Shown in pieces: positions 19,366-62,419 of a stretch of DNA of 64,000 nucleotides. Position numbers and translations under genes: made by a program. This DNA comes from Ginglymostoma cirratum (Eukaryota): the NCBI GenBank assembly GCA_024137785.1, contig JAHRHZ010000249.1, positions 75,036,630 to 75,100,629 of the forward strand, written 5' to 3'. Below the pieces are notes generated by a model. The model had not been told where the DNA came from, searched no databases, and saw only the letters and a list, made by a program, of their open reading frames with translations. Each line of letters opens with the position of its first letter. Position 1 is the first letter of the stretch.

Positions 19366-20151
19366 CCTCATTATGACAGAGTGGTGCACATAACAGGCAT
19401 AACAAGGGACACCCCTTCCAAAAAGATGTGAATTGAGTAAAACAATGATTCATTGACTATAAATTTATTGTTGCTCAAAAGGTAAGCTATCCCTTTTATT
19501 CCCAGAAACAAATGAAAGTTTTTTTTTTGTTTTTCCTGTTGTTCTCTAAAAGTGAGTATTTTCAGCTGTTTAAAGACTTTCCACCATGTCATGTTCTCAC
19601 ATTGAACAATGGCATGATGTTATGCTGGGCTCAGAGTTAGGGAAAGCGTAGACAGGATTCTAGCATGGTTTGTCATTGAGGTTGGGTAACCTCTGTAGTT
19701 TCAATCTTATAGAGAAAACAGCAGTTTGATCAGACAGACGATGAGGTAAGGTAGCAATACATTTACAAATCTGAGCTTCTATTACCACTGAAGAATCATC
19801 TGTCTTACATATGTGCCCTCAGAAACTGTTCCTTTTCATTTGCCTCCCATATGTGCTCTGTGGAGGGCTATTGATGGTGACCTAGTGCACAGCTGATGGA
19901 AACCTGGAATGTCTCAGAAACAGCAAGTACTTCTGCTGCTGATAGGATCACGATAGCACAAGGGCAGTGCCATAGAGCATGATGTGTACACAGTCAGGTG
20001 AGCAGCGGAGATATCATTCCAGAGCTCACAGAGGATCCCTCCATGAAATTCCTTGAAATTAACACTTAGCTGCTTCTCAGTAAACCCCATCCCTGCGTAT
20101 ACATTCCAGGTTTGCAAACTTTCATCAGAATATGATGGTTTATATTATTGA

Positions 20152-20358
20152 GTCTACGTGTGTGAGGGTGGAAAAGCACATCAGGTCAGGCAGCATCCGA
20201 GGAGCAGGAAAGTTAACATTTTCGGCCAAAACCCTTCCTTAGTCCAGACTGAAACATTGACTTTCTGGGTCCTCAGACGTTGTCTGACCTGCTGTGCTTT
20301 TCCAGCCTCAAACCTATAGACTCTGTGTCCCAGCATCTGCAGTCCTTATTGTCGCCAA
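20152..20358. mobile_element. Short fold-back PLE-terminus element with perfect 15-bp TSD
   Basis: Inverted arms tggaaaagcacatcaggtcaggcagcatccgagga / tcctcagacgttgtctgacctgctgtgcttttcca; ggtttatattattga at 20137-20151 and 20359-20373. Confidence 0.85.
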
Positions 20359-23082
20359 GGTTTATATTATTGATACGGGCAGTGCATGTTTTACATTATT
20401 ATGCCAACCAAGCATAATATTGCTGGTTTGGGCATATGGGCAGGAGTGGCAAGGCTGATTTTATTGCCAAGGATGGAAGGAAGAAGTGTACACTTCAGTC
20501 GGGTGTAGTGGTGGGGTATTCTCCGTGTGCATTGGGGGCATACAACTCAAGATTTCAACCACCAGCCCCTCCCACCCCACTTCCTTCTGTGCCATCTACC
20601 CTTCTCTTCTTCTCTCTCTGTGCTCTTAGATCCTAACCTAAAACATGGGACTTAGCTTGCTAGGCAGCCATGATCTACTTCATGCTCCTTCTTACATTCC
20701 CTGCACTGCCCACCGCTGCGCTCTGGCACTGCCGGTATTGGTGGAACTTCCAGCTAGTCTTATTGGCCAACAAGCCTTGAGAGAGGGGATTAGTCTGATT
20801 TAACAGTGAAAGTCCTTCTTACAGCCACTTTAGCCTTGCCTCATATTTGCTGCAGGATGGGCTCTCTCCAAATGTGTCAGCTTCTAGTTGATTTTTCTTC
20901 CAGGGGAATAAGTAATCTGCTTTCTCTAAACACAGCCTTATGTATTTAAGGGACAATAGCCCAGTTGTACCTTGGTGGAGTTGGGAGCAATTAGCAGTGA
21001 AAGAAATTATATCAGAAGCATTGATTTTCCTTTTTGCAAGTTTTCTGGTCAGCACATTTACCTGATTATCATATATTTGCCATACAGCTTTGACTTTATT
21101 ATTCACCAGAGCAGAATTCCATTTGGCTACAGGGTAATCAATACCAAAACCTTACATACTGGTGATTGTGGATTTAACAAGAACTCTCAAAGATTCTCTC
21201 AATGTGACTTATTAATTACCTGGAAATTTAAGTTGCTGCACTTATTTAAAGGTAAACAGCCAGGCAAGTGAGGTAGACATTTTTGAATTCTTTCGAAAGG
21301 ATAAAATGGATTTGATTTCAGAAATCTGAAAGAAGGGTTGGTTGAAGGGGAAGTGAGATGGGAGATGTACCAGGTAGGAATGAAGTGAAGGGAAGCAAAC
21401 TGTGGAAATAGGAAATAAAGTTTATAGGCAAACAATGTGACATTTGATACAGTAACCTCTGCACCATCACCACTGCTGTTCCATGCCTGAACATACTGAA
21501 AAATAAGACAATTGCTGGAGAACTGTCCTGTCTCATGCTCCAGGGAACACCATCACAAGCAGTCTTACAATTAAACTAGGATCATATAAATGTTGATACA
21601 CCAGCTGATTTGGATACTTTGGCTGTCTTGCTAGTTGCCATATTGAAATGGTTTCTAATATAATGGAGCCAAAGATCTGCTGCCATTTCCACATTCTGCT
21701 GTTCTGCTGAAATGGCTGTTATTTATGCCAGGATCTGTTGAATATCTGGACTGCTATTGGAATTTCTCAGGAGCAAAGATTCCCAGCAGAGATACTTTAA
21801 TCTCAATGTTCTGAGAAAATTGCTGCAAGCTTTCAATTTACGTAACACTGAGCAGTTATATTCTACACCTGTAATTTTCTTCCAAATAGAATAGCAGTCT
21901 TTGCAGCTAGAAACCAACTTGAACAATCATGCAAAACTGGCAATAACAAATCATCAGCTAATTTAATACCTCTCCCAAACTCCTTAATTGAAATAGGTGC
22001 AAACCCATGTTACACTATTTGCAAAGAGTATTTTCAACCCATTGTGTTTTATACAGTGTATATATGTCTATTCTTATCACCTGCAGTATAAGTGTACATA
22101 CAGTTGTTTGAAGAAATTAATCAATGTAGCATTATCTGCTTTCCTGACTTTTCACTCATGCACTACTGTGTGGAAAAAGATCTAATCTCTATTTTTGTTA
22201 GTGTGCTGCTTATCTTGCCTTCATGCTCCCAAGGTCTTTAATCACAGCTGAAAGTTAAATTGCCTACTTATATCTTTAATATACATGCTTTCCATCATTT
22301 TAAAGACCTTAATCATGTCGCTGTTCTAATCTCAATTCTCTGAATCTCTTCAAAACATGAGGCACTGGAATCTGCTCCATGTGTCTCCACAAACTTTCCT
22401 CACTATTTTAAAGTCCTTTTGAGTATACAATATTACACCTGATATTCCAAATGTGAGATTCTGTGCTAATTCACTAATTATGTTACATCCACATGGATAT
22501 GTATCTAAGAAGTAGCCTGAGACTACATTATACATTCAAGGTAGTGAGAAAGAAAGAAATGAAAACAAGAAAGGACAAGGTTTTATCTCTATCCAGTATT
22601 CAGCATTGGGCGGTGGAGATTGTTTGTCTAAACACATTATTTTATATTATATTCAATTTTTTTCCAGAAGTTTTGGCTAAGCAACTAACTCTAAGGGTAA
22701 ACAGAACTGTTTGAATGCAATTGCTCATTAGAGAGTAAGGCAGATGCATTACCATTGGAAGTTATATTCACACAGACACCAACACTCCCTGCTTTAATGA
22801 TTGTACCTTCATAAGACCTAGCTAACTTATCAAACCAACATTTCCTATTACTTCAGTGACACTAAATGCTGTAGAAGAAAGAATGTGAACTGGTATCGAA
22901 TCTTTCACTTCAGTATGTCTGAGAGTGAAATAAGTTAGGTAATGAAATATTTTTCGAAGTGAAGTTACTGTTGTAATATACATATAGAATACAGAACAGT
23001 ACAGCACAGTAACGTAAGAAGAACACAGCTAATTTGCAAGTAACATGATCCAACATACAACAAATGAAATGTGTTAGCTAGT

Positions 23083-23310
23083 CAGGAGATAAATACTGAC
23101 AAGGACCCAAGGGAGAACATCTTTATATGATGCCATATGATATTTTTCAACAGATAGGAGCATGGTATAAAGCTTCAGTTGGTAACACACCCAATAATGT
23201 GTCATCCTTAGTGCAATATTGTTGAAATTTTGCGCTCAAGAGCTTGGAGCAGGACCTGAACCCACAATCTTCTGATTAAAGGTTAAATGTGAACAGAGGT
23301 TGAGCCCATA
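23083..23310 (-). mobile_element. Degenerate Deu-type (SacSINE1/AmnSINE1-like) SINE
   Basis: Reversed head gggttcaggtcctgctccaagctcttgagcgcaaaat and central gttctcccttgggtccttgtcagtatttatctcc resemble Deu-domain SINEs. Confidence 0.55.
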
Positions 23311-28745: not shown

Positions 28746-29376
28746 GAGATAACAAGGTGTATGGCTGGATGAACACAGCAGGCCAAGCAGCATCGTAGGA
28801 GCAGGAAAGCTTAACGTTTCGGGCCTAGACCCTTCATCAGAAATGGGGGAGGGGAAGAGGGTTCTGAAATAAATAGGGAGAGAGGGGGAGGCGGATAGAG
28901 GATGGATAGAGGAGAGGATAGGTGGAGAGGAGGCAGGCAAGTCAAAGAGGCGAGGATGGAGCCAGTAAAGGTAAGTGTAGGTGAGGGGGTAGGGAGGAGA
29001 TAGGTCAGTCCAGGGAGGACGGACAGGTCAAGGGGGCGGGATGAGGTTAGTAGATAGGAGGTAGGGGTGGGGCTTGAGGTGGGGGAGGGTATAGGTGAGA
29101 GGAAGGACAGGTTAGGGAGGCGGGGACGAGCTGGCCTGGTTTTGGGATGCAGTAGGGGGAGGGGAGATTTTGAAGCTTGTGAAATCCATATTGATACCAT
29201 TGGGCTGCAGGGTTCTCAGGCTGGATATGATTTGCTGTTCCTGCAGCCTTCGGGTGGCATCATTGTGGCACTGCAGGAGGCCCAGGATGGACATGTCATC
29301 TGAGGAATGGGAGGGGGAGTTGAAATGGTTCGCGACTGGGAGGTGCAGTTGTTTGGTGCGAACTGAGCGTAGGTGT
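28746..29376 (-). mobile_element. Penelope-like element (Neptune-type GIY-YIG C-terminus plus pseudo-LTR)
   Basis: HLRSVRTKQLHLPVANHFNSPSHSSDDMSILGLLQCHNDATRRLQEQQII..LQPNGIN on the minus strand, a C-rich 3' UTR and a hammerhead motif. Confidence 0.9.
28810..28843 (-). ncRNA. Minimal type I hammerhead ribozyme motif (PLE-associated)
   Basis: ttt CTGATGA a gggtc-ta-ggccc GAAA CG TT aag: core intact, palindromic AACGTT in place of stem III, weak stem I. Confidence 0.7.
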
Positions 29377-30449
29377 TAATTACTTTCAATTAGGCACTAC
29401 ATGTAAAACTGAACAGGATAAAAACAGTTATGTATTCAGTTGGGAACTATCATTGTTAATGTTGTAGCTGCCCAAGGCTAATGGAAGACTCACACACTTA
29501 TGATGAAACTGTGCAAGTTTTAATATTTACATTAACCCAAGAAGAAGTAAAATTCTTGAAAAGCAAGTTTTGTTAAAGGCATTCAACATTGAGGGATTCC
29601 ATAAATGATATAATTAATGATCTTTAGATGGGTGGTTTTAAATCAGAATTCACAAGACACATACTTACTTTTTGGAATTATGTGAATCATTGTCAGATTT
29701 ATTATAGTTCAAAGAAGATTTGACTTTAAAGACCCATTCAGCTGGTGCTGAAAGTAGAAATAGAAAGACCACAGAGAAATCTTAGAGAAAGGACAACTTT
29801 ATCGCAGAATCCATTCATTTCATAAGGTACCAAATCCACATGTAAAGGCAAAACAAGGAGTAGGTCAAACAGCAGATATGAAGAGTTAATTTCAGTGCTG
29901 TAGACCAATGAATGTTCAGTAGCATAAGCAATGCCCAGCCATTTTAAAAAGTATTATATCTGTAAAATAAATATTACTTACAGAAGATATATGGAAGTAG
30001 GACTCAGAAAAGGAGCAGCAAATGGTCGAATGGCTACTCAAATAAAAATGTTAATTAGGTAGAATAGTAGAAGAGAAATCAATTATTGGGGAAATTGATG
30101 CTCAAAAGCAAGTGCTTTGGCAAGAAGATTTTCTGTCAATGGACATCTTTTTCATTTTAAGCTTGATATTACGGTGAGTGTCACAATATTGTCAAATCAT
30201 CACATCCTGTAAATGAATCAAAATAATAAGAGAAATGTTTCATCCTGTCATGGGATGAAAACCAGTGACTATACAGAGTTGGAAGAAATGATTTCCACTC
30301 ATATCAATACTTGAAGACAATTCAGATGCCAAAAGTCTGCAGTGTTTGCAAGAAGACTCAATGATGAGAAGGATAGTGAACAATATGATCTCAATGAAGA
30401 ATATTTACCTGACTTTGTTCTGACACAGATAAGTGAAAAAAATCATTGT

Positions 30450-31171: not shown

Positions 31172-31305
31172 TTGAACTGGACTGTGGGAGGAAACCCATG
31201 CAGAATGTACAAACCCCACACTGGCAGTCACTCAAGGCTGGAATCAAACCTTGGTCCCTGGTGCTGTGTGGCAGCAATGTTAACTACTGAGCCACCATGC
31301 CCCAC
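31172..31305 (-). mobile_element. HE1-type SINE 5' fragment
   Basis: Reverse strand gcatggtggctcagtagttaacattgctgcc..ggtttgattccagccttgagtgactg. Confidence 0.8.
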
Positions 31306-31862
31306 AGTCAGTAAGAACAAGTGCAATATGAGGGGATATCTTGCTGTACAGCTCACCAAGACGTCAGTTTAACACCTCCAGGATGAGCAGTTCGAAGAGT
31401 GAGTCTTGTTGAGCCAGTAGCAGCAGTCAGGGGAATCACGTAACATCAGTTGGGAGCTACAAACATAACAGTTGGCATCTTGTCAATAATGATTAGAGGC
31501 TACCTTTCAAATTGGCCAGACGTCTGGGATGAATACAGTCCTTGCTATCCACCTGTCAATCATTAAGTAGGGGCATGGGTCTCCTAGAGGGGTAGAGAGA
31601 GGTGATCACTACCAAAAAGAGACAGGGGAGTCAAGAGGCTGGAAGGTAGTAAAAAGCAGTGACATTTGTGGAGGTGGGAATTAGGATGGTGATGGGAGGG
31701 AATTTAAATGGTACATAGAGGGGTTTTTACAGAATCTATTCTGCAAAGGGGCCTGGTAGACAAATAGAGGGTTTTGGTGGGGGTGAGGGAGTAATTGGCA
31801 GTGACCACCTCAATGGCCTCCACAAGGGGTCCATAGAGGAGGAGGGAAAGAGTCATTAGGGT

Positions 31863-35985: not shown

Positions 35986-36072
35986 GAATTAATTACAAAC
36001 TTTTAACACTTCTTTTAATTCCCCACCAGCTCTGTTTTTCTTGTATGTGAAGGATTTAAATTCTCACATTCT

Positions 36073-37050
36073 GGAGTTGTTGGTTGGCTCCCCAAGCAGA
36101 CTGGTTTACGTGCAAATGTTTTGTCTTCCTTTTAGGTGACATCATCAGTGTTGTGTAGCCTCCGTTGAAGTGCAGTTGTTCTGTTCCACTCTGAATTTCT
36201 AGGGTCTGGTCTGTCAAGGTGGGCAGTCTTGTTTCTGGTTTTGTACCGTAGTGATATGTAGATGGAGCCTGTTTCAACATGTTTGTTTATCACATCGGTA
36301 GTTGAAAAACAGGCCTCCAGAAATCCTTGTGCTTGTCTTTGTTTTGCTTGTCCAAGTACTTTGTCCCAATTAAACCGATGCCCTTCTATGTCGGAGTGCA
36401 ATGAAATGATGGAAAGCTGGTTATGTCGTTTTGCTGTGAATTGGTGTTCATGTATCCTGGTGGTGAATTTCTTGCCCAGCTGTCTTATTTAGTGTTTCTC
36501 GCAGTTGCTGCATGGTATTTTATATATCACATTTGTCCTGCTCATTGTGGCTATGGGGCCTTTCGTTTTTGAGAGTAACTGGTGAAGTATGGCTGTTGTT
36601 TGTGTGCTACCCTTACTCCAAGAGGTCGTAGGAGTCTTGTAGTCGGTTCTGATGTGTTTCTAATATTGGGTAGAGTGGTCAGTGTGTTGGGGCATACAGT
36701 GTCTTCTTGGTGTTGTTTATTTTCCAGGCATTGGCAAAGAAGCTGTTGGGATACCCATTGCTTGCAAAGACTTTGTATATGTGTTTCTCTTCGTTTTTGC
36801 ACAGCTCCGGGGTGTTGCAGTGAGTTATCGCTCGTTTGAACAGATTCTTGACACAGCTCTGTTTGTGGATGCTAGAGTGCTCACCATGACAGACCGGGCC
36901 ATATAAATTCAGAGCGGGACAGAACAACAGCGCTTCAATGGAGGCTACACAGCACTGATGATATCACCTAAAGGGAGATGAAACATTTGCACGAAAACCA
37001 GTCTGCTTGGGGAACCAACCAACAACTCCAACCACAACCCGAGCTACAGA
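36073..37050 (-). mobile_element. Penelope/Poseidon-type PLE fragment with inverted terminal copies
   Basis: Minus strand: HKQSCVKNLFKRAITHCNTPEL..VFASNGYP and NVIYKIPCSNCEKH*IRQLGKKFTTRIHEHQ (GIY-YIG). 36073-36200 is an inverted copy of 36905-37030. Confidence 0.88.
36952..36990 (+). ncRNA. Type I hammerhead motif, partly decayed
   Basis: gca CTGATGA t atcacct-aa-agggagat GAAA CA TT tgc; stem I gca/tgc; the inverted partner at ~36110-36150 has GAAA mutated to AAAA. Confidence 0.6.
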
Positions 37051-39682
37051 TCTTCACTAAAACATTAAAGTTCTTAAGTTCTGCTCAGTGAAATCTGTAA
37101 AATTTTGTGGCCAGCATGCTATAGATATTGTACTTTAAAAAGAATCAAAAATCAAAGGTGTATGGCATCATATCACAACAGGGAACAAGGACAGTCAGTG
37201 TTCCTGCTCTGGTTATTATTCAGTGATGTTTACTGGAACATTTCTACAGTGCATGCCTATGACCCCCACCCCTCCCCCGTGGTTAAACAGTTTATACATT
37301 TCACCATATAGATTGACATAGGGATAATTGCTGTTGTGATGAAGTACTCAAGAGCTGCCAATGACTGAGGAAATTTAGCCCTATATGAGTCACCTCTTTC
37401 TAAGGAGAGAAAATTGGAAAATAAAACTCGTCTAACTGAATTAGACAGTGATAAGCAGTGGCCACCCCTGAACCTATGCCCTGTTTAAGTACTGTACAGA
37501 TTAGACTACTGGATTTGCAGCAATTTCTAATGGAGGGTGTGTGTGTGGTGGTGGCTTGCTGGCTTTCATACAGATGTTGTTATTCCGGATGCTGCAATTT
37601 CCTCGTTCTAATTACGGATGTGAATAGCCTTGATCAAATCTAAGGCAGGACCGTAGTAAATCCACAATCTGGGTTGGCTCCAAGTTACTACCATTTACTA
37701 TCTGCATCTCAGTAGTCAATTGAAAGACAAGATTTTGCTAAGCTACTGGACAGCCCTGATGACTCTTCACTTAGCAGACCACATCTTTGATTCACTTTCT
37801 TGATTCACACTTTCAGAAATCCTGCGCTGAATTTTAGATGCAGGGTCCTGTTCTAGGCTAAATTGCAAACTGGGAACTTAGGAGTTGTTGTGATGGAAGT
37901 CAGGATGAGATTTTCATGGAGGTAGCCAATTCCCAGGCCATTTCCAGCAGTGCTGTCTAATGATATACATTGTGTCCCTTGGTTTAGTGAGCTTAAGCCC
38001 TGTCGTATAAACTGCAAATCCCAAGTTTGGATCTCAGCAGTTGGGGAAAGGGGAGAAGGCTCTTGTGGGAGAGTGATAATGTCCCTGCTTCTAGGCCATG
38101 AGGCCAGGGTTCAAGCCCCAAAGCAGGTTGATTAAGAATAATTGCAGCTGCACAGCTTCAAAGATAAATGGGACCTACAGGTAGCTGACAGACACAGATG
38201 GACACTACTGCTGTTGTTTGCGAACATTGTGAGCATCTCAACAAGTAGGCACTTTCTGAATACTTTGAATACTTGTAAATGATACAAACCATGCCTTGAC
38301 CAACCTTCCAAAGGGAAACTCCTTCACACGGTGACTGGTGAATTTAGCTCTCACAGCCTAGTGCCTTTGAACTAGGCTGTCTTCTGGCTGTGCCTGTGAC
38401 ATCCCGTTCCAATCCCCAGTCAAATAGCAGGGAAGGAGAGTCTGGATAGTGCCAATGGTGTGTGAAAAATGCCCACAGTCAACACTTACAAACACATTGC
38501 TCACAACACGTCTCTCCCTACAGATAAAAATTATGCTTCTTTCTTCTTAAAAGATGTTTCAGAGCTTGAGAGCTCATTCAAAACCACAGATCCACCTGAT
38601 GCAGCATAACACTATAAAGGAAACATTGGACTTGTGCAGATAAAGCAATTAGCCAACCTATTGTAGCAAAATTGAAAGTTAAAATATCCACAGGGACTTA
38701 CTGTTAACTTTTCTGCTGGTGATGAATGAATTTATTAACTTCAAATAATTTAATCATTTATTAGGTCAGAAGAAATGTAATTGTTTGAAAATTATTGTTG
38801 CTCAAGTAAATGAGATCCTTTTCCTTTGAGTCGTTTATCGGAATTTGTATTCTGTTCAGAAGATGCTTCCTGCATTTTAAGAGAAATATTTTTTGAGGTA
38901 AAGCTTTTGGCATTATTTGATAACAAATCTTTGCATTAAAGGCGCTACGCTGAACAGAAAATGTTGTTATTGGCATTTCTTGGCTGAAAACATTTAAGAT
39001 ATGAATTGTAAATGTTTTGAGTATCCCGGGAGAATAGGAACACAGTTCCTGTTTTCCTGACCTAGAAGTGAAGTGCCGTCCCTACTACCTACTGTGTGAG
39101 TTTACCTCCACTATCCTGACGGCAGTCTACATGTGGAAGTGAAGAGTTCACTTGGTGAAATATACATCACTGCAAACAGTCTGGAGACAGAATACCACAA
39201 GGTCTAGTTCATCATAGCCAGTAACTTCAACCAGGCTAACCTCAGGAGTATGCTACCAAAATTCCACCAACATGTCTCCTGTCCCAACAAAGGTCCGAAC
39301 ATCCTTGACCATTGTTACACAACCATCAAAGATGCCTACCGCTCCATATCTCGTCCACATTTTGGAAAATCAGATGACATCGTTGTGCTCCTCCCCCGGT
39401 CTTATTAGCAGAAATTGAAGTGTGAGGACCCAGCACAGAAAGTAGTATAATGCTAGTCTGAGGCAACAGAGGAGCTTCTACTGGACTGCTTGGAATTGGT
39501 GTACTCATCCATATTCAAGAACTCGGTTGCCAACCTAAACGAGTAAGCCACTAACGTTACAGACTTCATTACGAAGTGTGTACAAGACTGTGCGTACCAA
39601 AGAAGTTAATCTTAATGTTCCCCAACTGGAAACCATGGATGAACCAGGAGACCCATTGCCTACTGAAGCCCAGGTCTGAGGT

Positions 39683-41232
39683 AGGAGCAAATTACTGCAG
39701 ATGCTGGAACCTGTACTGAAAACAAAAAATATTGGAGATCACACCGGGTCAGGCAACATCCATGGAGAGAAAGCAAGCTAATGTTTTGCGTCTAGATAAC
39801 TCTTCATCAGAGTTGACATGAAGTGTGGAGAATTAACCATTGATGTAATAGTGGGGTAGTAGGAGAGGTGTTCGAGTACTGGGGAAGAAAGGATGTTGAT
39901 AGTTCAAATTAAGTGATCAGATTGTGAGAAAGGCAGAACCACAGTGTGTCTGACTGCCAGACTGGAAAGAAAAGACAGTACCATTGGAGTAGGGGAGGGG
40001 AAGGAGGATATGATGACAGAGAATATAACAGTGCTGCTAACATGGTTTCCTTCTTCCATAACCATGGTTTCCTGACCACTTTGGTTGACACGGCTTTCAA
40101 CTACAGGTGGCATGGTGGCTCAGTTGTTAGCACTGCTGCCTCACAGTGACCTGGGTTCGATTCCACCCTTGGGTGACTGTCTGTAGAGTTTGCACATTCT
40201 CCCTGTGTCTGTGAGGGTTTCCTCTGGGTGCTCTGGTTTCCTCCCACAGTCCAAAGATGTGCAGGCTAGGTGGACTGGCTATGCTAAATTGCCCATAGTG
40301 TTCAGGAATGTGTAGATCAGGTGGGTTATAGGGGAATGGGTCTGGGTGGGATGCACTGAGGGTCAATGTGGATTTGTTAGGCTAAAGGGCCTGTTTCCAC
40401 ATTGTAGGCACTCTATGATCTGACCTATTAACCATGCTTCCTTCCCATCACTCACTACAGTGTATTGGGTCCCCTTGTTCTCATTTCTCATCCCACCAAC
40501 CTATACATTCAAAGGATTATTCTCCACCATTTCAGAAAACTCCAGCAGAATGCCACCATCAATCACATCTTCCCCTCATTCCCCCGTCTGTGTTTTGCGG
40601 GGACTGTTCCCCCCAGGGCACCCCAGTTCATTCCTCCACCACCAACACCACTGCCCCTCTCCACAGCACCTTCCCATGTAACTGCAGAAGGTGCAACACC
40701 CGCCCCTTCACCTCCTCCCTGTTCACCATCCAAGAGCCTAAACAGTCTTTCCAGGTGAAGCAGCACTTCACCTGTACCTCCTCCAATCTTGTTTATTGTA
40801 TTCACTGCATCCAATGTGGCCTACTGTACGTTGCAGAAGCCAAAGGCAGACTGGGTGACTGCTTTGCAGAACACCTCCAGTCCGTGCATGAGCAGGACCC
40901 CGACCTTCCCATAGCTGGTCATTTTAACACAATGTCCTGCTCACATGCCCCACTTGTCTGTCCTCATTTGCATTATCCAGCGAATTACAATGAAAACTGA
41001 AGGAACATCTCATCTTCAGACTGGAATATTGAGCTCAAAACCGTCAGATTGTGAACCCATTTCTTCCACTGCACCCCCCACCACTGCCCCCACCACCCTA
41101 CTATTGATAAATGCTGTCTCCTCCACACTTCACATCAGCTCTGATGAAGAGTCATCGGGACTCGAGACATTAGCTTGTTTTCTCTCCATGGATATTGCCT
41201 GACCCTCTGTGATCTCCAGCATTTTTGTTTCC
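39683..41232 (+). mobile_element. Neptune-type PLE with inverted 5' copy of its terminus, nested in the Rex LINE
   Basis: ORF 40434..41000: FPCNCRRCNT..FQVKQHFTCTSSNLVYCIHCIQCGLLYVAEAKGRLGDCFAEHL (Cys linker plus GIY-YIG). 39715-39830 is inverted relative to 41120-41235; degenerate TSD agcccaggtctgaggt / agtccaggcgtgaagt (12/16). Confidence 0.85.
40105..40420 (+). mobile_element. HE1-type SINE nested in the PLE
   Basis: Head, V-domain and tail all present, as at 2768-3070. Confidence 0.9.
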
Positions 41233-42720
41233 AGTCCAGGCGTGAAGTGTTCAAGTAAGATGACCCTGACCTTTACAGGAAATCCAGGCTCCACAAAGCT
41301 ATTAGAGATGCCAAGATGTAATACCAAGATGTAATAGTTAGGAGACCCTAACTAACCACACAGATGTCTGCCATTTGTAGCAAGGCTACAAAGCAAAGCT
41401 GATCAGAATGGCAGACAAAAATACATTCCTCCCTGATGCATTTTACACTCGTTTCGAACAGAAGGTCAGTGAAACGGTGTCACCTTCCTCGAGAGCCTCA
41501 GCTGCATCTTTTCCCCCAGTCACCATTGCAGACATCAGATCCACCTTTTTAAGAGTGAACCCAGGGAAAGCAACTGGCCCAGATGGAGTCCCTGGCCATA
41601 CACTCAGATCCTGCACATACCAGCTGGTGGGAGTATTCGCTGACACCTTTAACCTCTCCTCACTACGATCTGAAGTCTGCACTTGTTCCAAGAAGACCAC
41701 CATGATCCTGATGCCAAACAAAACTAATGCAGGGTCCCTAAATGATTACCACCCGGTGGTTCTAGCCTCCATAATTATGAAGTGCTTTGAGAGGTTAAGT
41801 ATGGCTCACATCAACTCTAGCCTCCCAGCCTGCCTTGATCCACTGCAATTCACCTACCGTTGTAACAGGTCCATGGCAGATGCTATCTCCCTGGTCCTAT
41901 TCTCAACCCTGGAAAATCTAGATAACAAGAAAAACTTCGTCAGGCTCCTACTTATTAACTACAATGCTGAATTCAATACCATAATTCCAACCAAACTAAT
42001 CTCCAAACTCTGAGAGCTAGGTCTCTGCTCTGCCCTCTGCAACTGGATCCTCAAATTCTTGACCTACAGACCACAATTGGTAAGGATAGGTGACAGCACT
42101 TCCTCTACAATAATCCTTAACACCGCACCCCCACAAGGGTGCATACCCAGCCCCTTACTATATTTCCTTTATACTCATGACTGTGTAGCCAAATTCTGTT
42201 GGAACTCCATCTACAAATTCACTGATGATGCCACCATTATGGGGCAGATATCAAACAATGACAAGACAGAATACAGGGAAGAAATAGAGTGCTTGCTAGC
42301 GTGGTGTAAAGATAACAATCTCTCCCTCAACATCAGCAAAATGAAAGAGCTGGTCATTAACTTCAGGAAGCAAGGGGTAGAGTATGCCCCTGCCTGCATA
42401 AACGGTGCTGAGATGGAAAATGATTGACAGCGTCAAGTTCCTGGGAGTGATGATCACTAACAATCTGTCCTGGTCCATCCACATTGACATTATGTCAAGA
42501 AAGCACAGCAAAGTCTGTATTTCCTCAGGAGGCTATGGAAATTCAGCAAGTCCATTAAATCGCTTACATATTTTTATAGATGCACCATTGAAAGGATTCT
42601 ACCAGGATGCAACACAGCTTGGTATGGCAACTGCTCTACCTAGGTAAGAAACTACAGAGAGTTGTAAACACAGCCCAAACCATGATGCAAGCCAACCTCC
42701 CAACCATTGACTCCAACAGT

Positions 42721-43500: not shown

Positions 43501-43717
43501 CATTTCCACCAACAGATTGAAGAACAGCTTCTTCCCAGCTGTTATTAGAGTTCTGAAAAAACCTGTCAAAAATTTAATGTTGATCTCGCTCTTTGCGCAT
43601 CTTCTCTGCAGCTGTAATATTGTATTCTTTGCTCTTGTTCTATTATCCAAATAAATTTTGTGTGGTATGATCTGTCTGAACTGCACAAAAAACAAAACCT
43701 TTCACTGTACTTAGGTA

Positions 43718-43848
43718 ACAAGGTGTAGAGCTGGATGAACACAGCAGGCCAAACAGCATCAGAGGAGCAGGAAAGCTGATGTTTCGGGCCTAGACCCTTC
43801 TTCAGAAAATCATTTTCTCAGATTCTCCAGCATCTGCAGTTCCTACTA
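43718..43848. mobile_element. Short PLE terminus insert with an inversion and ~16-bp TSD
   Basis: Minus piece 43718-43810 joined to a plus 3' end 43816-43850; tcactgtacttaggta (43702-43717) / tcactgtacctgggta (43849-43864). Confidence 0.8.
43776..43808 (-). ncRNA. Minimal hammerhead motif (CG to CA in stem III)
   Basis: ttt CTGAAGA a gggtc-ta-ggccc GAAA CA TC ag. Confidence 0.55.
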
Positions 43849-44276
43849 TCACTGTACCTGGGTACGTGTCAATAATAAATCAAATCAAATCAAACATAGG
43901 AACAGGAGTTGGCCATTCAGCCCCTCAAGCCTATTCCACCATTCAGAAGATCATGGCTGCCCTTTGACCTAGGTCCCTTACCTTCACCTAACAAAGACTT
44001 GGCTATCTCAGATTGAAAATTACAACTGATCTGGCATCCATTGCTGTTTGTGGAAAAGAGTTCCAAACATCTACCACCCTCTGTGTGTAGAGGTGCTTTC
44101 TAACATCTCTCCTGAACGGTCTGGCCCTAATTCACACACAATGCCTCAGTGGGAAATGGCTTATCTTTAGCTACCCTGTCTTTTCCTCTTAATATCATGA
44201 AGACTTCAACCAGATCTCCTTTTAAACCTTTCTTAACCTTCTAAATTGTAGAGAAAACAGGTCTAATTAATATAAA

Positions 44277-44513
44277 AACCAAGACAACTGTGGATGCTGT
44301 AAATCAGAAACAAGAACAGAAATTGCTGGAAAAGCTTAGAAGCTCTGGCAGCTTCTGTAGAGAAATATCAGCTTTAATGTTTCAGGCCAAGTGACACTTC
44401 CTTGGAACTGCGGTTCTGAGGAAGGGTGACTGAACCTGAAACACTAATTGTGATCTCTCTCCAAAGATGCTGCCAGAGCTTCTAAGCTTTTCTAGTAATT
44501 TCTGTTTTTGTTC
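44277..44513. mobile_element. Fold-back PLE-terminus element with 14-bp TSD
   Basis: ~100-bp inverted arms around gaactgcggttc; ctaattaatataaa (44263-44276) / ctaatttatataaa (44514-44527). Confidence 0.85.
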
Positions 44514-44772
44514 CTAATTTATATAAACTTGACCCCTGAAGACCAGGTATCATTTTTGTAAACCTATGTTACGCTCCCTCCAAGGCCAATATATCCTTTC
44601 CAAGGTGTTGGTGCCCCAATCTGTTTACGGTATTCCAAATGGGGTCTAACCAGAGTTTTGTATAACTGTAGCATAACTTCTGCATCCTTGTACTCCAGTC
44701 CTCTAGATATAAAGGCTAGCATTTCAGTAGCTTTCTTGATTATTTTCTGTACCTGCTTGTGACATTTTAAAG

Positions 44773-45090: not shown

Positions 45091-46229
45091 CAAATGTCTA
45101 TGAACCTGAACTCCCAAATCTTTTTGGACAATCACTGTATTTAACTTCATATCATCCACTGTTGTTCACTCCAAAATGGATACCTCACACTTACATTGAA
45201 CTCCATCAGCCAGAGTTTTGCTCATTCACTTAGTCTATCAATATCCCTTTATAATTTTGTGCTTTCATCTACACTGCCTACAATGCCTAATTTTGTGTCA
45301 TCGGCAAATTTGAATATATAATTTTCTATATCATTATCCAAGTCATTAACAAATAATGTGAATAATTGAGGCCCTCACACAGATTCTTACAGGACACCAC
45401 TGGTCCTGCCAATTTGAGTACCTACCCATCATCCTTACTTTCTGCTGTCTACCACTCAACCGATTTCCTGGCCATGACAGTTAGTCATCCTCACTTCTAT
45501 GGGATTCTACCTTAGTTCACAGTTTCTTATGCGGGACTTTATTGAATGCCTTCTAGAAGTCCATACAAACAACAACCATAGACATTCCCCTGTTCACTAC
45601 CTTGATCACTTCATAAAATTCAATGATATTTGTCAGGCATGGCCTACCCTTCATGAATCCACACTGGATCTCACTGATTAACTGAAAATTTTTGAGGTGT
45701 TCAGTTGCCCCATCCTTGGTTATAGACTCCAATAATTTTTCCACCACAGGTGTTAGGCTAACCGATCTGTAATTCCCTAGTCTGCCTTTTTTTATCCTTC
45801 TTAAAAAGAGGGTGGTACGTGCAATTTTCCAATTCAGAAGGATGGCTCCAGTATCTAGGCAAATCTGAAAGATTATGTTTTGGGCATTTACAATGTGCTC
45901 ACTTTCTTCCTTTAACATCCTCGGATAAAAACTGTCAGGGCCCAGGGATTTGTCACTCTTTAATTCCATTAATTTCCTCATTACCAATGTTTTAATTAGG
46001 TTAATTTTATTCAGTCCATGCTCCTGATCCACTATACATTCCCTTGGACACTGAGGTAAAGTAATTATTCAACATATCTGCCATTTCACCACAATCATTG
46101 ACAATATCCTCACTTTCAGTCTTTCATGGGCCCACATTGTTCCCGGCTACCTGCTTCATCAGAACACAAGTAAGCGCTTTGTTCATTTGATCACATTCGG
46201 AAGCTATAGCCCATGTTCATCTCCTCTAA

Positions 46230-46397
46230 CTTGGAGACAGTAAGGACTGCAGATGCTGGAAGTTACAGTCGATAAATGTGGAGCTGGAAAGGCACAGCAG
46301 GTCAGACAGCATCCGAGGAGCAGGGAAGTCAATGTTACGGCCAACTCCTCAGATGCTGTCTGACCTGCTGTTCTTTTCCAGCTCCACATTCATTGAC
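46230..46397. mobile_element. Fold-back PLE-terminus element with 14-bp TSD (hammerheads deleted)
   Basis: aatgtggagctggaaaggcacagcaggtcagacagcatccgaggag / ctcctcagatgctgtctgacctgctgttcttttccagctccacatt; ttcatctcctctaa (46216-46229) / ttcacctcctctaa (46398-46411). Confidence 0.85.
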
Positions 46398-47439
46398 TTC
46401 ACCTCCTCTAATGCTGGGCATAACTTTATCAGCAACCTATCATTTTATTTTGAACTCTTTAACCCAGTTAGCAGCAGCTTTAGTCAATAACAATCTATTT
46501 CATATTTTAGTCCTGAGTTTGACAGAATTAATGCTCATTGCAGGCCCTCATTTCCTCTTTCTTTCCAACAACCCATTTAAATGCCAGTCTCTCGCAGTCT
46601 ACGATCACTCGACTCCATCAGTGCTTCTGCTTTCAAGGTTTTAAACTGTTTTGAAAACTTTGAAGCCAAAATAACCAGAACACAATGCCTTAAAGGGGCA
46701 TCTTTCTCTCTTCATACTCTTTTGAAATAACCAGTTTAAACAATGAAACCAAATCAAATCAACTTGGCCCAAAGACAAACAGGCAAGCCATTTCTCTCAA
46801 CTACCCATAAGAGGTTTCTAAGCAGATATTTTACACTTTACAATACATGCAGCAAATCCCTCCAGAACTAAATTGGAAGAAACAAACATTAAGTAAAATG
46901 TATGTATTCGAAATGAAAAATTACAAACCAGCTTTATACACCTAAATTACAATAAATGAATGTGTAAACATGTCAAATTAAGTTTATTTTTCATGTAGAT
47001 ACTACCATATAATGAACTAAATAGTAATAGATTTTCCATGATGTTGTATGTGTAACTTGTGAAACATGGCCTGAGGTACTTTAGAAATGCAGATAAAAAG
47101 GAAAGGGAGAAAGTCGAAGGCTGTGGATGCATACTTTATGTTAGAAATTAGTCGTTAAAAGTTGAAAAACATGTCCAAGAGTGTAAGACCTTACAGAAAC
47201 TTCAAAAAGGTAGGTTGTGGCAGGACTAAATGGATTCCCAGGTAAGTGTGCTAAAACCAGAGATTCTGGAAGATGGAAATTAAGAACAGCCACAAGGCAT
47301 CTCTTGGCCTGAGTCATGATGGCTTGATTGCTGACTGAGGCAAATTGAGAACTTGCATTATGTTGTCGAGAAAAGTTTATATGAAAGCATGACACAAAAC
47401 ATGTGACGATGGAACTCACTAGCTGCAAGGGTGATAGAA

Positions 47440-47874: not shown

Positions 47875-48655
47875 AGGATTATGCAGTAGGTCAGGATCAA
47901 TATGAAGCAGGACTGGAGGAGTGAGAAGCAATTTGGTATCTCTGAAGCAGGTGACGTCACTGGGGAGCAGACCAGGAGGAATGCAAAGCAGATCAGGGTT
48001 AATGTAAACAGACCAAGAGGAGGGAGCAGGCCAGAGTCAGTGCGAAGCAGATCAGGAACAGAGTAAAACAGGTTGGGGTCACAGTGAAGCAGAAAAAGGA
48101 GAAGTATCAAACAGGTCAGGATCGTTATGAAACAGACTAGCAGCAGTGTGAAGCAGGTCAGGATCATTGTGAAGCAGAAATAAAAACAGAAATCACTGGA
48201 AAAGCTCAGCAGGTTTGGCAGAATCTGCAGAGGGAAAGTAGAATTATCATTTCAGGTCCAGTGACTCTTCTTCAGAACACCTTTTTTTTTAACAAAAGTG
48301 TTATTGCACATCTCTGGAGTAAGTACGCCTTGAACCCACATCTCCTGACTCTGAGTTAGGGACACTATAACTGCCCCACAAGGGCCCCCATTCTGAAGAA
48401 GGGTCACATTAATTATCCTTTCTCTCACAGTAGCTACCAGATGTGCTAAGCTTTCCCAGCGATTCGTGATTTGTTTCTGATTTCCAGCGTCTGCAGTTCA
48501 TTAGTTTTTTTGTTTGGGGTTTTTCAATGTGAGGCAGACTGGGGGCAGTATGAAGCAAAGGAGGATCTCTGTGAAACAGACCGGGAACGATGTGAAAAGG
48601 GGTCAAGATTGCTATGAAGCAGACCAGGAGCAGCGTGATATAGTTAGGGATCAAT
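47875..48655. repeat. Degenerate 21-bp minisatellite with alternating A/B units, split by a fold-back insert
   Basis: tgaaacagactagcagcagtg | tgaagcaggtcaggatcattg | tgaagcaga..; the period resumes after 48524. Confidence 0.8.
48179..48523. mobile_element. Fold-back PLE-terminus element with a SINE head in its loop
   Basis: Arms 48179-48278 and 48391-48500 (ctggaaaagctcagcagg.. / ..gctaagctttcccag); the loop 48290-48390 reads as a tRNA-like head on the minus strand; flanks tcattgtgaagcaga / tcaatgtgaggcaga. Confidence 0.7.
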
Positions 48656-50789: not shown

Positions 50790-50990
50790 AGGAGGTGATG
50801 GCCCAGTGGTATTATTGCTAGGCTATCAATCTAGAGAGCCAGGTGATGTTGTGGGGACACAAGTTCAAATCCTGCCATGACAGAACAAAAATGGAAATCT
50901 GGAATTAAGAATCTAATGATGACCCTGAAACTGTTGGGGAAAACCCATCTGGCTCACAAATGCCCTTTAGGGAAGGAAACTGTCATCCTC
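50790..50990 (+). mobile_element. SINE family B, 3'-truncated
   Basis: gaggtgatggcccagtggtattattgctagg..tctggaattaagaatctaatgatgacc..aaacccatctgg..ctttagggaaggaaactg. Confidence 0.85.
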
Positions 50991-50994
50991 AACC

Positions 50995-51840
50995 ATGCTC
51001 AAGGGCCTGAGCACCTTTTCCCATGTCCTCACCCTGAACCCTCACACACCAGGCCTTGTCATCACATGGACTGCTACCACAAACAACCCATTGTCAGCCA
51101 ATAATGGTCCTATTGACTATCCCAGTCAGACGTTTACCCTTTTCTTTGTCTGCCTAACTGTTGTTCTATGTCTCTGCCCCCAAGGCTTGGGGACCACTTT
51201 GCAGAACACCTACACTCGGTTCGCACTAAACAACTGCACCTCCCAGTCGTGAACCATTTCAACTCCCCCTCCCATTCCTCAGATGACATGTCCATCCTGG
51301 GCCTCCTGCAGTGCCACAATGATGCTACCCGAAGGTTGCAGGAACAGCACCTCATAATCCGCTTGGGAACCCTGCAGCCCAATGGTATCATTGTTGACTT
51401 CACAAGTTTCAATATCTCCCCTCCCCCTACCGCATCCCAAAACCAGCCCAGCTTGTCCCTGCCTCTCTAACATGTCCTTCTTCCCACCTATCCCCTCCTC
51501 CCACCTCAAGACCCACCCCCATCTCCTATCTACTAACCTCATCCCACCCCCTTGACCTGTCCGTCCTCCCTGGTCTGAGCTATCTCCTCCCTACCTCCCC
51601 ACCTACACTCACCTTTACTGGCTCCATCCCCACATCTTTGACCTGTCTGTCTCCTCTCCACCTAGCTTCTCCTCTATCCATCTTCTATTCGCCTCCTCCC
51701 TCTCTTCCTATTTATTTCAGAATCCCCTTCCCCTCCCCCATTTCTGAAGAATGGTCTAGGCCCGAAACGTCAGCCTTCCTGCTCCTCTGATGCTGCTTGG
51801 CCTGCTGTGTTCATCCAGGTCTACACCTTGTTAATCTCAG
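50995..51840 (+). mobile_element. Neptune-type PLE 3' part (51175-51840) joined to the 3' UTR of another repeat family
   Basis: ORF 51168..51470 RLGDHFAEHLHSVRTKQLHLPVVNHFNSPSHS..LQEQHLIIRLGTLQPNGI, a C-rich UTR and a hammerhead motif. Confidence 0.88.
51741..51773 (+). ncRNA. Minimal hammerhead motif with GUC triplet
   Basis: ttt CTGAAGA a tggtc-ta-ggccc GAAA CG TC ag; the base of stem II is mismatched. Confidence 0.55.
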
Positions 51841-53714
51841 CTTCCAGAAATGCTGCTTCTTGAATCTTTGATACTTGATGCTCTTCCAAATAACTATTAA
51901 GTTTATTGGGATACTATCTGAGAATCCTTCCATAATATTGATTTCTGGACTCAATTCAAATCACTAATGCCCCTTGGTCTGTTTTCTATGTTGTTTTAAA
52001 AGTTAACATTGTAAACATTTTGTCAAATAACATCTAGGTATCCTGCTAGGCAATTCACTGAAGTCATACACCTTCTTAAAAATTACGTAATTAGTTCAAT
52101 GCCCTAAATGACTTTCAGACCTCTTAAAAGAAAGATTGTTACTTTCATAGACTAAAACCTTCTGAAATTTATCGAGCTTTAATGACCCACTGTGTCATTA
52201 ATATCTGGGGAAATTACTGAGATTTCCATGCGATGTGTCTTGATCACTGCACAGAATGTAGTGTTCAATCACAGCATGTTACCCATTTATCGCACATCAA
52301 TTCTGGATGTCAGAATATGTTAGGTAAATGTGTATTGTGGATAATATTATTGTTCCAACATTATGTAGTAAACTTAAGTGCCGTTTGTTCAAAACCTTTT
52401 ATGGCTTAATTCTCTTAGGTAAATACCCTGAATATCACACTTTGCCTAGTTCAACAAAAAGATTATTGGCTCCTAGCCAGATTGTAAAATAATTTGGTCG
52501 TCTGGTCTAAGATCATTTCATGAGGGATTAGGAAAGCAAGCCAAAAAGCGGAGTTCACAGCCATGATTTTATTGAAATCTGGTGGGTTGAATGGCCTACA
52601 TCTGCTCCTAATTTTTATTTTGTTGTGTTCTTATCAAATACAACAGTAAGGAAGTCTTACTACAATAATCCATCATATTGGTGAGGCCATACCTGGAGTA
52701 TGTGCAGCTTTATCTCCTGACCATTTTTGAGACACATACCTGATCACAGCAGCAGTTATCTGGGCAGTTATCTGAGGTTATCTGTGCAGTGTTTCTGACA
52801 GTAACTGACAAAGACAGTGCGTCTGGATTAATCACCGAAAACACACAGGTTGAGAAGGCAGGAAGGTGATTCTACATCCGGGATGGCAAGGGCAGCTGGC
52901 ATTGTGTCTGCCGTGGAAATGTTGCTCACTGAGGTGAATGGGATTAAGGTGGGACAAAATTGAGGAGCAAAGGGTGGGAGAAAACAACAGCCATTTCTTC
53001 AATACGAGCGCGTTCTGTGACATCAGTCTCCAGGAGATCATGATCTAATGACAAGCCTTTTCTGCATGGATGACCTCAGGTTTATCAGCTTACAGGTTTA
53101 GTGTGAGGTTGCATACTCTTCCTGAAGGTCCAACCTCCTGTAGCCCACTCACATTCTGTGAGATGACAAGGTAAATTCACTGCGGGTCTGCTGGTAAAAT
53201 GCCCTTGGATTTTTGAGATTCCTGTGCTAATTGAATTAAAGTACAGATCAGCCAGGATCTCACAGAATGGCGCAATAAACTCAAGATACAACCTGACTTA
53301 TTCATGTTCCTATATACAAGCATGAAATCAATAGTGCTGTCAAATCCTGTGATGAAAACTGGTCAGCAAGAGGACCAAACAAATTGGTCCTCTCATGGTA
53401 TCAGAACACAACAATGTTTTGGGCTCACCTAATGTCAGAACCGGAAAGAGACAGGGAGAGAGTCTAATGATGGCTGAAAGTGGTCCTTTGTTTTAATGTA
53501 GAGCTGAAGTGAAGAAAAGCCTTTCTGATAGCAGCTTCCAATAGTTCCTTTTTCTCAAATGATCCATTTTCTTTTATACATTAATTGAGGTTATATGTTG
53601 AACACACAATCTATTTCATTTTAGATTTTCACTTGTGAAGCTATACATAAATGTACAAGAAAACTAATTGTTATACCTACTATAAAAATGTACGCAGCTA
53701 AAAAGTATTCTTTT

Positions 53715-53830
53715 CTTCTGAAAACGGGTCATAGTGGACTTGAAACGTTAACTCTTTCCACTAATGCTGCCAGTGCTTTCTGTGTTTGTTTAAGATACCC
53801 AGACCCTGCAGTATTTTGTTTTTATTTTAA
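53715..53830 (+). mobile_element. Decayed PLE terminus
   Basis: ctgaaaacgggtcatagtggacttgaaacgttaactct..tgctgccag..ctgcagtattttgtttttatt. Confidence 0.55.
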
Positions 53831-60750: not shown

Positions 60751-62048
60751 CAAGTATAGACAATCTCAAAAACACGAATAATTGGACTGCAGCTAGAATA
60801 AATAATTTAATAATTAATATCTAAGTACTTAATAAACCCTTTAAATAGTGGTGCTGTGAGGTGAACTCTGTGAAATGTGTTGAATTGTATAAGGTGAAGG
60901 CAGAACCTTGGCTGAAGTACAGTGCTTGAAAATAGTAACACTAGAATCAAATTAGCTTTACACCCTGATTGGATTGCATGCTGCTGTTAGCTGCACAGAT
61001 ACAAACTGCTTTAGCATGTTAGACTGTGGAGCTCTTCCTACAGAATTGTGCATACTTATCTCAGAACCCAGTTTTGAACGTTAGTTTCCTGTGTAGTATC
61101 TCAACAAAAAGAGATGTTAAATTGCCCAGTAAAGCTGATGTTGTATCTTAGGTACAAATCAATTTCCAGCCCGTCAAATGCTACTTCCATTTCGGTGCAC
61201 TCTCAGTTTTGCCAATTATATTTTGTGTGGCATCTTGTGAACGTCAATAAATTAAATTTGATCTAAATTTAGCCAGGTTTAAAGCAGAAATGAGCCACTT
61301 GACCTTTGGTGAACTGCACATGAATAGCTTCCTGTAGGAATGAAGAGAAGTGTCATGTAAAGAAGTAAAATAAAAGTTTCATGAAAGAATAATTTAACTA
61401 GTCATGTGGCTTTAAACATTGCAAGAGTTTAGAAAGTAAGGCTGAAATTTTTCCAGGCCCTGAACGATGTGAGCTATGGCAAGAAATTTGGAAGAATCAC
61501 GAGAGGAGTTGAGTGATAATTTCTCTACATTGAGACCGACAAGTTACGTTTTCAAACTAAGTTCTGGACATCAAGGAGAAATTCTCACAAGTAAAACTAC
61601 CGCTCAGCAATACATCATTATAATTCAATTTTATTTCACTGATATGCATTGTCCTACTCTACTTCCCATTGGATAGAAATTAACCACAAAGAATTCCTGA
61701 AATGAAAGTCAGAGTGAATGTCTCATAACTACAGCTCACCACTCACGCCTCCAGAACTCCACATTGGGCATAGGGCACCAATATTTCACCAGCCTTTTTG
61801 TATTACCATGGTATAGTCTTGATCCACTTACAGTGCACTTCTGCACTGCCAAGTTGCACTTAACAGCTGGCACCTATCATTTCAATGCTGCTGCAAGTTA
61901 CTTAGTGTGCAGGGATTGGTATCCAGTTTACAGATTGGATCAGGCTGCATCCCAGGAGTTGCTTGATCTCTTAGAGTTCACTAATTTTGAACCTACCTGG
62001 ATGTTCCCAGAATTAGTGCTGACAAAGCCTATCAAGTTTAACATGCTT

Positions 62049-62396
62049 AAATCAAAAAACGAAAGAACTGTGGATGCTGTAAATCAGGGACAAAGACAAA
62101 GTTGCTGGAAAAGCTCAGCAGGACTGGCAGTATCTGTGAAGGAAATATACAGAGTTAATGTTTCAGAGATAACAAGCGTGGGGCTGGATGAACACAGCAG
62201 GTCAAGCAGCATCATAGGAGCAGGAAAACTTGACGTTTCAGGCCTAGACCCTTCATCAAGCCCAGTGACCCTTCCTCAGAACTGCCTCCCTAGTTCTGAG
62301 GAAGGGTCAATGGACCCGAAATGTTAACTCTGCTTTGTCCTTCACAGATACTGCCAGACCTGCTGAGCTTTTCCAGCAACTTTGTTTTTGTTCCTG
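62049..62396. mobile_element. Fold-back PLE-terminus element with perfect 14-bp TSD and a nested PLE piece
   Basis: Arms acaaagttgctggaaaagctcagcaggactggcagtatctgtgaagga / tccttcacagatactgccagacctgctgagcttttccagcaactttgt; agtttaacatgctt at 62035-62048 and 62397-62410; foreign piece at ~62167-62260. Confidence 0.88.
62292..62329 (+). ncRNA. Type I hammerhead motif, best-formed stems in the window
   Basis: AGTT CTGAGGA a GGGTC-aatg-GACCC GAAA tg TT AACT: 4-bp stem I, 5-bp stem II, intact core; stem III CG changed to TG. Confidence 0.7.
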
Positions 62397-62419
62397 AGTT
62401 TAACATGCTTGTCAGCAGT

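Follow-up and report, generated by a model that had tools for sequence, protein, structure and literature searches.

Head-to-head inserts of Penelope-like element termini in a Ginglymostoma cirratum contig: a new instance of a known insertion type, probably built anew at each insertion

Inverted inserts in the window

We analyzed a stretch of 64,000 nucleotides from Ginglymostoma cirratum (GenBank assembly GCA_024137785.1, contig JAHRHZ010000249.1, positions 75,036,630 to 75,100,629 of the forward strand; hereafter the window, numbered from its first letter), in which an earlier note had described seven fold-back inserts made of the termini of Penelope-like elements (PLEs). All seven were found where that note had placed them, although its inventory was incomplete and had overlooked the two-armed inserts at 8666-9880, 36072-37064 and 63051->64000. 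The window contains nine complete two-armed inserts and one clipped by the window end, with lengths from 131 to 1550 nt. Each arm represents a PLE 3' end and comprises a minimal hammerhead motif (CUGANGA, a long helix II, GAAA and no helix III) and a terminus of about 65 nt. The arms face outward, head to head, and a target site duplication (TSD) abuts both outer ends. Exactly one arm carries a tail, and its partner has none. This anatomy, the derivation from several source subfamilies, the GIY-YIG endonuclease remnants in the long members and the many different joints were observed directly. We consider it probable that these head-to-head pairs of 5'-truncated PLE 3' ends, each tailed on one side and flanked by a TSD of 14-16 nt, were built anew at each insertion by two nicks, two primed cDNAs and tip-to-tip joining.

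The short inserts belong to three subfamilies, A (43.7 kb), B (44.3, 48.2 and 62.0 kb) and C (20.1 and 46.2 kb), which are about 50-75% identical between groups (an arm tree, in which 3 of 18 branches were well supported, was used for this grouping only). In the 20.1 kb insert (20152-20358, subfamily C), flanked by a perfect 15 nt repeat (20137-51/20359-73), the tailless arm lies on the minus strand with its inner end at hammerhead C3 20242, and the arm on the plus strand has a tail of 37 nt. The 43.7 kb insert (43718-43848, subfamily A; 43702..43864 with its TSD) has a 16 nt repeat with two mismatches (43702-17/43849-64), whose edges are ambiguous (14-16 nt). Its tailless arm on the minus strand stops 4-5 nt upstream of C3 43805 and is followed by a mini-hairpin of 7 bp (~43805-43820), and the plus-strand arm extends hardly beyond the tail. 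The 44.3 kb insert (44277-44513, subfamily B; 44263..44527 with its TSD) is flanked by a 14 nt repeat with one mismatch (44263-76/44514-27) and has its tailed arm (32 nt tail) on the minus strand and its tailless arm on the plus strand, both with mutated cores. The two arms meet in a zero-loop palindrome at 44410/44411, each stopping 5 nt upstream of C3 (44405 and 44416). In the 46.2 kb insert (46230-46397, subfamily C; 46216..46411 with its TSD), again with a 14 nt repeat and one mismatch (46216-29/46398-411), the minus-strand arm with a 38 nt tail ends within helix II, and the tailless plus-strand arm begins about 45 nt downstream of C3 and therefore has no hammerhead core.

The two remaining short inserts, both from subfamily B, have more complex centers. 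The 48.2 kb insert (48179-48523; 48164..48538 with its TSD) has a 15 nt repeat with two mismatches (48164-78/48524-38), a tailless arm on the minus strand (C3 48275), a spacer of about 110 nt and a tailed arm on the plus strand (C3 48393, GAAA box deleted), whose tail is about 47 nt with a T-rich end. The spacer (48282-48390, minus strand) has the look of the head of a tRNA-derived short interspersed element (SINE), with an A-run abutting the hammerhead arm and a motif that we take to be A/B-box-like. It had no tRNA match in Rfam and no ARAGORN call, and 38058-38086 holds a weak second copy (E 0.005). Possible origins of the spacer are capture as a template, a later insertion and a SINE-PLE chimera. 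The 62.0 kb insert (62049-62396; 62035..62410 with its TSD) is flanked by a perfect 14 nt repeat (62035-48/62397-410). Its minus-strand arm has a 36 nt tail (C3 62279) and is separated by a loop of 6-7 nt from the tailless plus-strand arm, which has an intact minimal hammerhead core (C3 62296). The left hammerhead of this insert is split by a nested subfamily-A terminus of 95 nt (62164..62258, minus strand), which begins at its own tailless start and extends up to its C3. The nested piece has neither a TSD nor a deletion and possibly reflects a template switch between PLE families.

The longer inserts share this layout. The 39.7 kb member (39683-41232; 39667..41248 with its repeat) has a 37 nt tail on the minus-strand arm, a long tailless arm on the plus strand, a degenerate 16 nt TSD with four mismatches (39667-82/41233-48) and a degraded endonuclease remnant (~40650-41000); the open reading frame (ORF) remnant is split by a SINE at 40106-40421. 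The 36.1 kb member (36072-37064; 36056..37081 with its weak possible TSD) is from an unrelated PLE family and has a long tailless arm with a GIY-YIG remnant on the minus strand and a short tailed arm on the plus strand (34 nt tail, C3 36955). The clipped subfamily-A member (63051->64000) has its tailed arm on the minus strand (63051-63376) and, from ~63381 on the plus strand, a GIY-YIG remnant, a 3' untranslated region (UTR) and a hammerhead (C3 63976). The old insert at 8666-9880 (8652..9894 with its TSD of 14 nt with two mismatches) has a tailless arm on the minus strand and a tailed arm on the plus strand, and contains a SINE and an additional PLE arm (~9604-9725). An arm-profile search of the window located further PLE termini. 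A single-armed subfamily-A fragment at 28746..29377 (minus strand) has the endonuclease end, the UTR, the hammerhead and a tailless end, and similar single arms lie at 51183-51844 (+), 27020-~27330 (-), 53716-53830 (+) and 1-104 (+). The fragments 28746-29377 (-) and 51183-51844 (+) are of nearly equal length and 90% identical, with no TSD found for either; a giant inverted pair 28746/51844 was considered and rejected, as no TSD partner was found.

The assignment of the arms to PLE termini, made by the earlier note, is borne out by the long members, which have the same layout and carry GIY-YIG remnants. The endonuclease remnants at 63.4 and 36.3 kb had GIY-YIG clusters as their first Atlas match (0.96 and 0.95), GIY-YIG motifs are visible in the translations of the long members, and unrelated PLE families that carry GIY-YIG-like ORF remnants have this layout in common. 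The short pieces of subfamily A share 85-94% identity with the 63 kb member; no long member of subfamily B or C is present in the window. The 39.7 and 63 kb members are presumably Neptune-like and the 36 kb member Poseidon-like, judging from motif patterns. The copies in the window are old and inactive. None reaches the reverse transcriptase (RT) core, and no partial tandem forming a direct pseudo-long terminal repeat (pLTR), as in active copies, is present in the window; truncated copies would not be expected to have one. Pattern scans of viral, metagenome and prokaryote genome contigs gave no matches.

Flanking repeats and one-sided tails

The flanking repeats agreed with the earlier description, namely 14-15 bp repeats at five short inserts, perfect at 20137/20359 and 62035/62397, and repeats of about 16 bp at 43718-43848 and 39683-41232. 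Seven of the nine two-armed inserts have a repeat of 14-16 nt with at most two mismatches, and the remaining two are degenerate (4 and 5 mismatches). In a control of 20,000 randomly chosen position pairs, repeats of 14-16 nt directly at both ends had at most two mismatches in 0.015%, at most four in 1.1% and at most five in 5.4%; the repeat of the 36.1 kb member (5 mismatches in 16) is thus within chance. The TSDs are richer in AT than the window (67% vs 59%).

The tails were aligned in six of the nine inserts, at 32-38 nt; those at 8.7 and 43.7 kb were judged by eye. In the different subfamilies, the tailless arms stop at roughly one common internal site. The earlier note had described each insert as two inverted copies of a terminus, which holds, but had overlooked that only one of the two has a tail. 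Inverted arms, a TSD and the lack of an ORF would also suit miniature inverted-repeat transposable elements (MITEs), that is, DNA transposons with long terminal inverted repeats. MITEs have symmetric terminal inverted repeats and a uniform length. The present inserts have ends made asymmetric by the tail of 32-38 nt, variable lengths and centers, and arms that are PLE termini continuous with GIY-YIG remnants, so that we regard a MITE-like origin as barely credible.

The tails also bear on a second explanation, in which each insert is made anew from a single cDNA that snaps back and primes itself, as proposed for the palindromic junctions of rotifer PLEs in the accessible text of PMC3846280. 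The zero-loop palindrome at 44410/44411 and the 7 bp mini-hairpin at 43.7 kb (~43805-43820) fit this explanation, as do joints in related organisms with four fold-back letters before the jump (62282->62351, in 8 and 6 contigs, and 62283->62369). However, the tailless arm extends further inward than the tailed arm at four inserts (20.1, 36.1, 39.7 and 43.7 kb) and therefore could not have arisen by simply copying the tailed cDNA, and a tailless cDNA could not serve as the template for a tailed arm. The common internal end of the tailless arms across subfamilies is, moreover, as expected for a priming site. We consider self-priming of a single cDNA unlikely.

Hammerhead motifs and inner ends

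The hammerheads were detected by a pattern scan of the window; Rfam gave no hammerhead match anywhere in it. Their architecture, with a long helix II, an extra base, a helix I of 4-5 bp and no helix III, is that of the minimal type-I motifs of PLE pLTRs. The earlier note had reported that, in the 44.3, 48.2 and 62.0 kb inserts, the arms meet just past the hammerhead and leave a motif or its remnant on each strand. Remnants are indeed present on both strands of all three, but intact cores on both strands were found in none of them (0/3); among their six arms, only that with C3 62296 retains CUGANGA, GAAA, UH and the 15.2-16.2 pair together. The direct meeting of the arms holds for the 44.3 kb insert, and not for the 62.0 kb insert, with its loop and split left hammerhead, nor for the 48.2 kb insert, with its unrelated spacer. 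The 20.1, 43.7 and 46.2 kb inserts have unequal truncations.

The inner end lies 0-5 nt upstream of hammerhead C3 in 10 of 26 arms (by eye), across subfamilies A, B and C; arm 1-104, whose inner end is beyond the window, was left out of the inner-end count. With a generous 6% assumed for each arm, the binomial tail for 10/25 is about 1e-6, a value to be read with the non-independence of arms within one insert in mind. This clustering bears on whether the short hairpins derive by deletion from long inverted PLE insertions. Long members are present, and microhomology jumps occur at 43.7 kb and in the joints of relatives, but deletion at random would neither gather 10 of 26 inner ends within 6 nt nor yield a zero-loop palindrome, and we hold this origin to be very improbable.

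Contigs of relatives also bear on this end. Public runs of related organisms contain up to 0.24 of the sampled words, and contigs from four of these runs were aligned to 61850-62440 at 80% likeness (61,632, 86,735, 19,458 and 1,831 contigs placed per run). The smallest of these, X23, was guessed to be RNA and was not used as evidence, as its contigs carry no information on expression, strand or ends; no RNA run was among the matches listed for related organisms. Immediately upstream of 62292, which lies 4 nt ahead of C3, 1,130, 1,365 and 767 contigs have loose ends, with an agreement of 0.36-0.37, compared with 0.39-0.41 at the true flank junction at the tail and 0.52-0.76 in rows with continuing family sequence. 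Because the reference has private letters near 62292, alignments are forced to break there, and only the low agreement and the joints with 2-4 intervening letters favor a real end. Many families with differing UTRs could also cause the low agreement.

One reading of this stop is a short PLE template of about 140 nt, used in addition to full-length RNA, with its 5' end set by hammerhead helix I and its 3' end being the tail. This would be a ribozyme-bounded non-autonomous RNA, protein-protected, spliced or started at that point, of several families, which inserts singly or head-to-head via a fixed double nick of 14-16 nt; some zero-loop palindromes may have been re-amplified. We put this forward as a doubtful possibility. 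If it is true, the PLE hammerhead would serve to bound an RNA and not to cut it. Splicing, as an explanation of the stop, is only a lead: in subfamily B a CAG ends 3 nt before the core, and subfamily A has no AG there. According to the accessible part of PMC4209133, an intron in D. virilis terminates at helix I.

Amplified unit or independent insertions

The earlier note had left two explanations side by side: a self-propagating, viroid-like unit, or formation anew at integration with a stagger of about 14-15 nt. In the former, a non-autonomous hairpin would be transcribed into a rod-like RNA with a hammerhead motif in each polarity and mobilized by a PLE protein. The 44.3 and 62.0 kb inserts form long hairpins, with fold z-scores of -15.0 and -18.3 and no equally stable shuffle (0/200 and 0/100, respectively). 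In favor of such a unit, the inner ends of the 44 and 62 kb inserts agree within 1 nt. Against it, the CUGANGA box, in the fold predicted for each whole insert, is largely base-paired to the antisense arm (mean unpaired probability 0-0.29). A viroid-like RNA has an intact self-cleaving motif on each strand and one conserved unit sequence and junction. Among the inserts of the window we found three subfamilies and differing centers, beside the absence of intact motifs on both strands noted above, and the tailless end carries no flank along. Among the 12 Tandem Repeats Finder rows of the window there is no head-to-tail tandem of at least two hammerhead-bearing units, as in retrozymes, although minimal hammerheads reportedly need a same-polarity dimer (PMC4209133, as far as accessible).

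Had a single master hairpin spread, the tailed arms of different inserts would be expected to have variants in common. For the four pairs of inserts tested, the informative columns shared within inserts and shared by role were 8 and 0 (44 vs 62 kb), 5 and 3, 3 and 2, and 3 and 1. Arm identity was likewise higher within than between inserts at 62 kb (90% vs 70-78%), 44 kb (80% vs 65-77%) and 46 kb (89% vs 74-78%). From these alignments, the sharing of variants within inserts favors an independent origin of the inserts.

The contigs of relatives point in both directions. For relatives A and B, a single contig each extends from the left flank of the 62 kb insert into its tail, so that both have this insert in common with the window. 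There were 630 different joints in relatives, and among the 15 listed none was found in more than eight contigs per run; the joint 62145->62265 represents paralogues without the nested 62164-62258 piece. The depth across the center was 0.9%, 1.7%, 1.5% and 0.5% of that of the adjacent arm in the four runs, a rough ratio, as depth is not copy number and perfect palindromes assemble badly. On the other hand, several loci of relatives cross the same center, and the depth at 62285 was 6,396 (run X1) and 4,542 (run X12), compared with about 10-12 for a single locus. A unique junction at every locus, which the earlier note had named as the mark of an integration by-product, was thus seen only in part: the joints are many, but a large number of loci have one and the same center, in which the two arms stop 3-5 nt upstream of the hammerhead core. 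Non-autonomous PLE derivatives are known (accessible parts of PMC8557442 and bioRxiv 10.64898/2026.07.22.740005). Still, the center-crossing pieces differ by gaps and stand beside hundreds of other joints, and we judge a self-propagating hairpin to be quite unlikely. The formation of each insert at integration, with a stagger of about 14-16 nt, is the alternative that the data support.

Several observations weigh against construction at each insertion. Among the pieces listed, 6/8 in X1, 5/8 in X12 and 1/8 in X19 cross a center resembling the one found in the 44 and 62 kb inserts, with 1-10 gaps, and young identical units would be under-counted because assemblies are interrupted at perfect palindromes. 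Empty sites were not observed, and the 15 joints listed, of the 630 of relatives, included no empty-site joint. The arms of the 48 and 20 kb inserts are only 65% and 71% identical within the insert, no closer than to some other arms, and are too decayed to be informative. The similarity of arms within inserts could come from later gene conversion: in the 44.3 kb hairpin, the outer half (44309-44355/44470-44513) is nearly perfectly paired, with private variants common to both arms, and the inner half is more diverged, so that arm-to-arm gene conversion is possible there. Finally, Pfam gave no GIY-YIG family in any of eight queries, and none of 95 candidates passed in a homologue search among longer proteins with the ORF at 40.4 kb.

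Putative mechanism of insertion

In construction at each insertion, the PLE RT/GIY-YIG protein would nick both target strands 14-16 nt apart and leave, as we infer for their polarity, 3' overhangs. Each 3'-OH would prime a cDNA on PLE RNA, one at the end of the tail and the other at a second start 32-38 nt inside; the tail would be one-sided because the two cDNAs start at these different sites. Both cDNAs would extend toward the 5' end of the RNA, and their tips would, we infer, be joined by microhomology of a few bases or a short snap-back, after which fill-in synthesis would duplicate the target. In the short inserts both cDNAs would have terminated early, many of them at the 5' edge of helix I, within 0-5 nt upstream of the core of the hammerhead, and such a stop would explain how a similar center recurs without a master hairpin. 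The Anolis PLE protein cleaves and extends both strands in vitro, and its RT starts at two sites that bound the tail (accessible part of PMC11167929). PLE integration is poorly understood, and the origin of the inverted structures and the role of the hammerhead are open according to the papers cited here. Two measurable constraints come from the inserts of the window: the narrow stagger of 14-16 nt, accompanied at each insertion by one priming event with the tail and one without it, and the preference for stopping at the hammerhead's 5' edge.

Relation to known elements

The earlier note had offered these inserts as a candidate for an undescribed system. The layout is, however, already in print for PLEs, and the inserts add one more case to an insertion type known from PLEs, in which an inverted copy, a one-sided tail, a TSD and opposite-strand minimal hammerheads have been published; the case for a new class of mobile element is weak. 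The accessible text of PMC3846280 describes inverted pLTRs with a one-sided tail of 31 bp, a TSD of 8-10 bp and junction palindromes, and the inverted-plus-tail layout has been generalized (PMC8557442, PMC2377424 and PMC8969392, as far as accessible). Complex insertions of endonuclease-containing (EN+) PLEs (PMC3846280, PMC8557442, PMC2377424) share with the present inserts the head-to-head inverted termini, the tail of 30-40 nt at one end, the TSD, the junction palindromes and the variable arms. They differ in that the TSD is 14-16 nt in the window and 8-10 bp in rotifers (PMC3846280), and in that the window has very short ORF-less forms; a clustering of inner ends at the 5' edge of the hammerhead was not found in the available portions of those papers.

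Likewise, opposite-strand minimal hammerheads 100-700 bp apart in PLEs, and many solo motifs from truncated PLEs, are reported in the accessible part of PMC4209133, and PLE hammerheads are reviewed as dimers in that of PMC6765202. The architecture and the dual opposite-strand motifs are the same as in PMC4209133, in whose accessible text no shark and no analysis of TSD, tail or end points was found. Anolis Poseidon (PMC11167929) resembles the present case in its two-strand cut and extension, two RT starts bounding the tail and AT-rich targets; it differs in that its start sites are used equally on both strands, and the available text contains no stagger length or inverted product. Non-LTR retrozymes, which form tandem arrays of pLTR origin (bioRxiv 10.64898/2026.07.22.740005, accessible part), are similarly short, ORF-less and pLTR-derived with a type-I hammerhead, and were present in the single cartilaginous fish sampled there; theirs, however, are head-to-tail arrays with at least two hammerhead units, whereas those of the window are head-to-head single units with a TSD. 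In the literature covered, which included few subscription papers and did not include the 2002-2006 PLE papers, Repbase or Dfam, no shark fold-back PLE unit, 14-16 nt PLE stagger or helix I stop was found. The narrow stagger and the many arms ending at the hammerhead edge are the unusual details of the inserts.

Other repeats in the window

ARAGORN called a tRNA-Asn at 9404-9490 (minus strand) within a repeat family with copies at 9137-9495, 10367-10646, 42718-43077 and 50791-50989, and this call is probably a SINE head. A second SINE family, which we take to be HE1-like, has copies at 2769-3069, 31187-31306, 40106-40421, 43190-43369 and 44771-45092. An inverted repeat of 83 nt (17543-17625/17995-18077, 75%) is unrelated to the PLE termini. 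The open frame of 216 aa at 4330-4980 (minus strand), with no Pfam match, may be a remnant like ORF1 of a long interspersed element (LINE) and is a candidate for such. Translations also revealed degraded LINE reverse transcriptase fragments, presumably L2-like and CR1-like, at 41381-42427 (+), 45553-46068 (-), 62430-62939 (+), 17-397 (-) and 32268-32654 (+).

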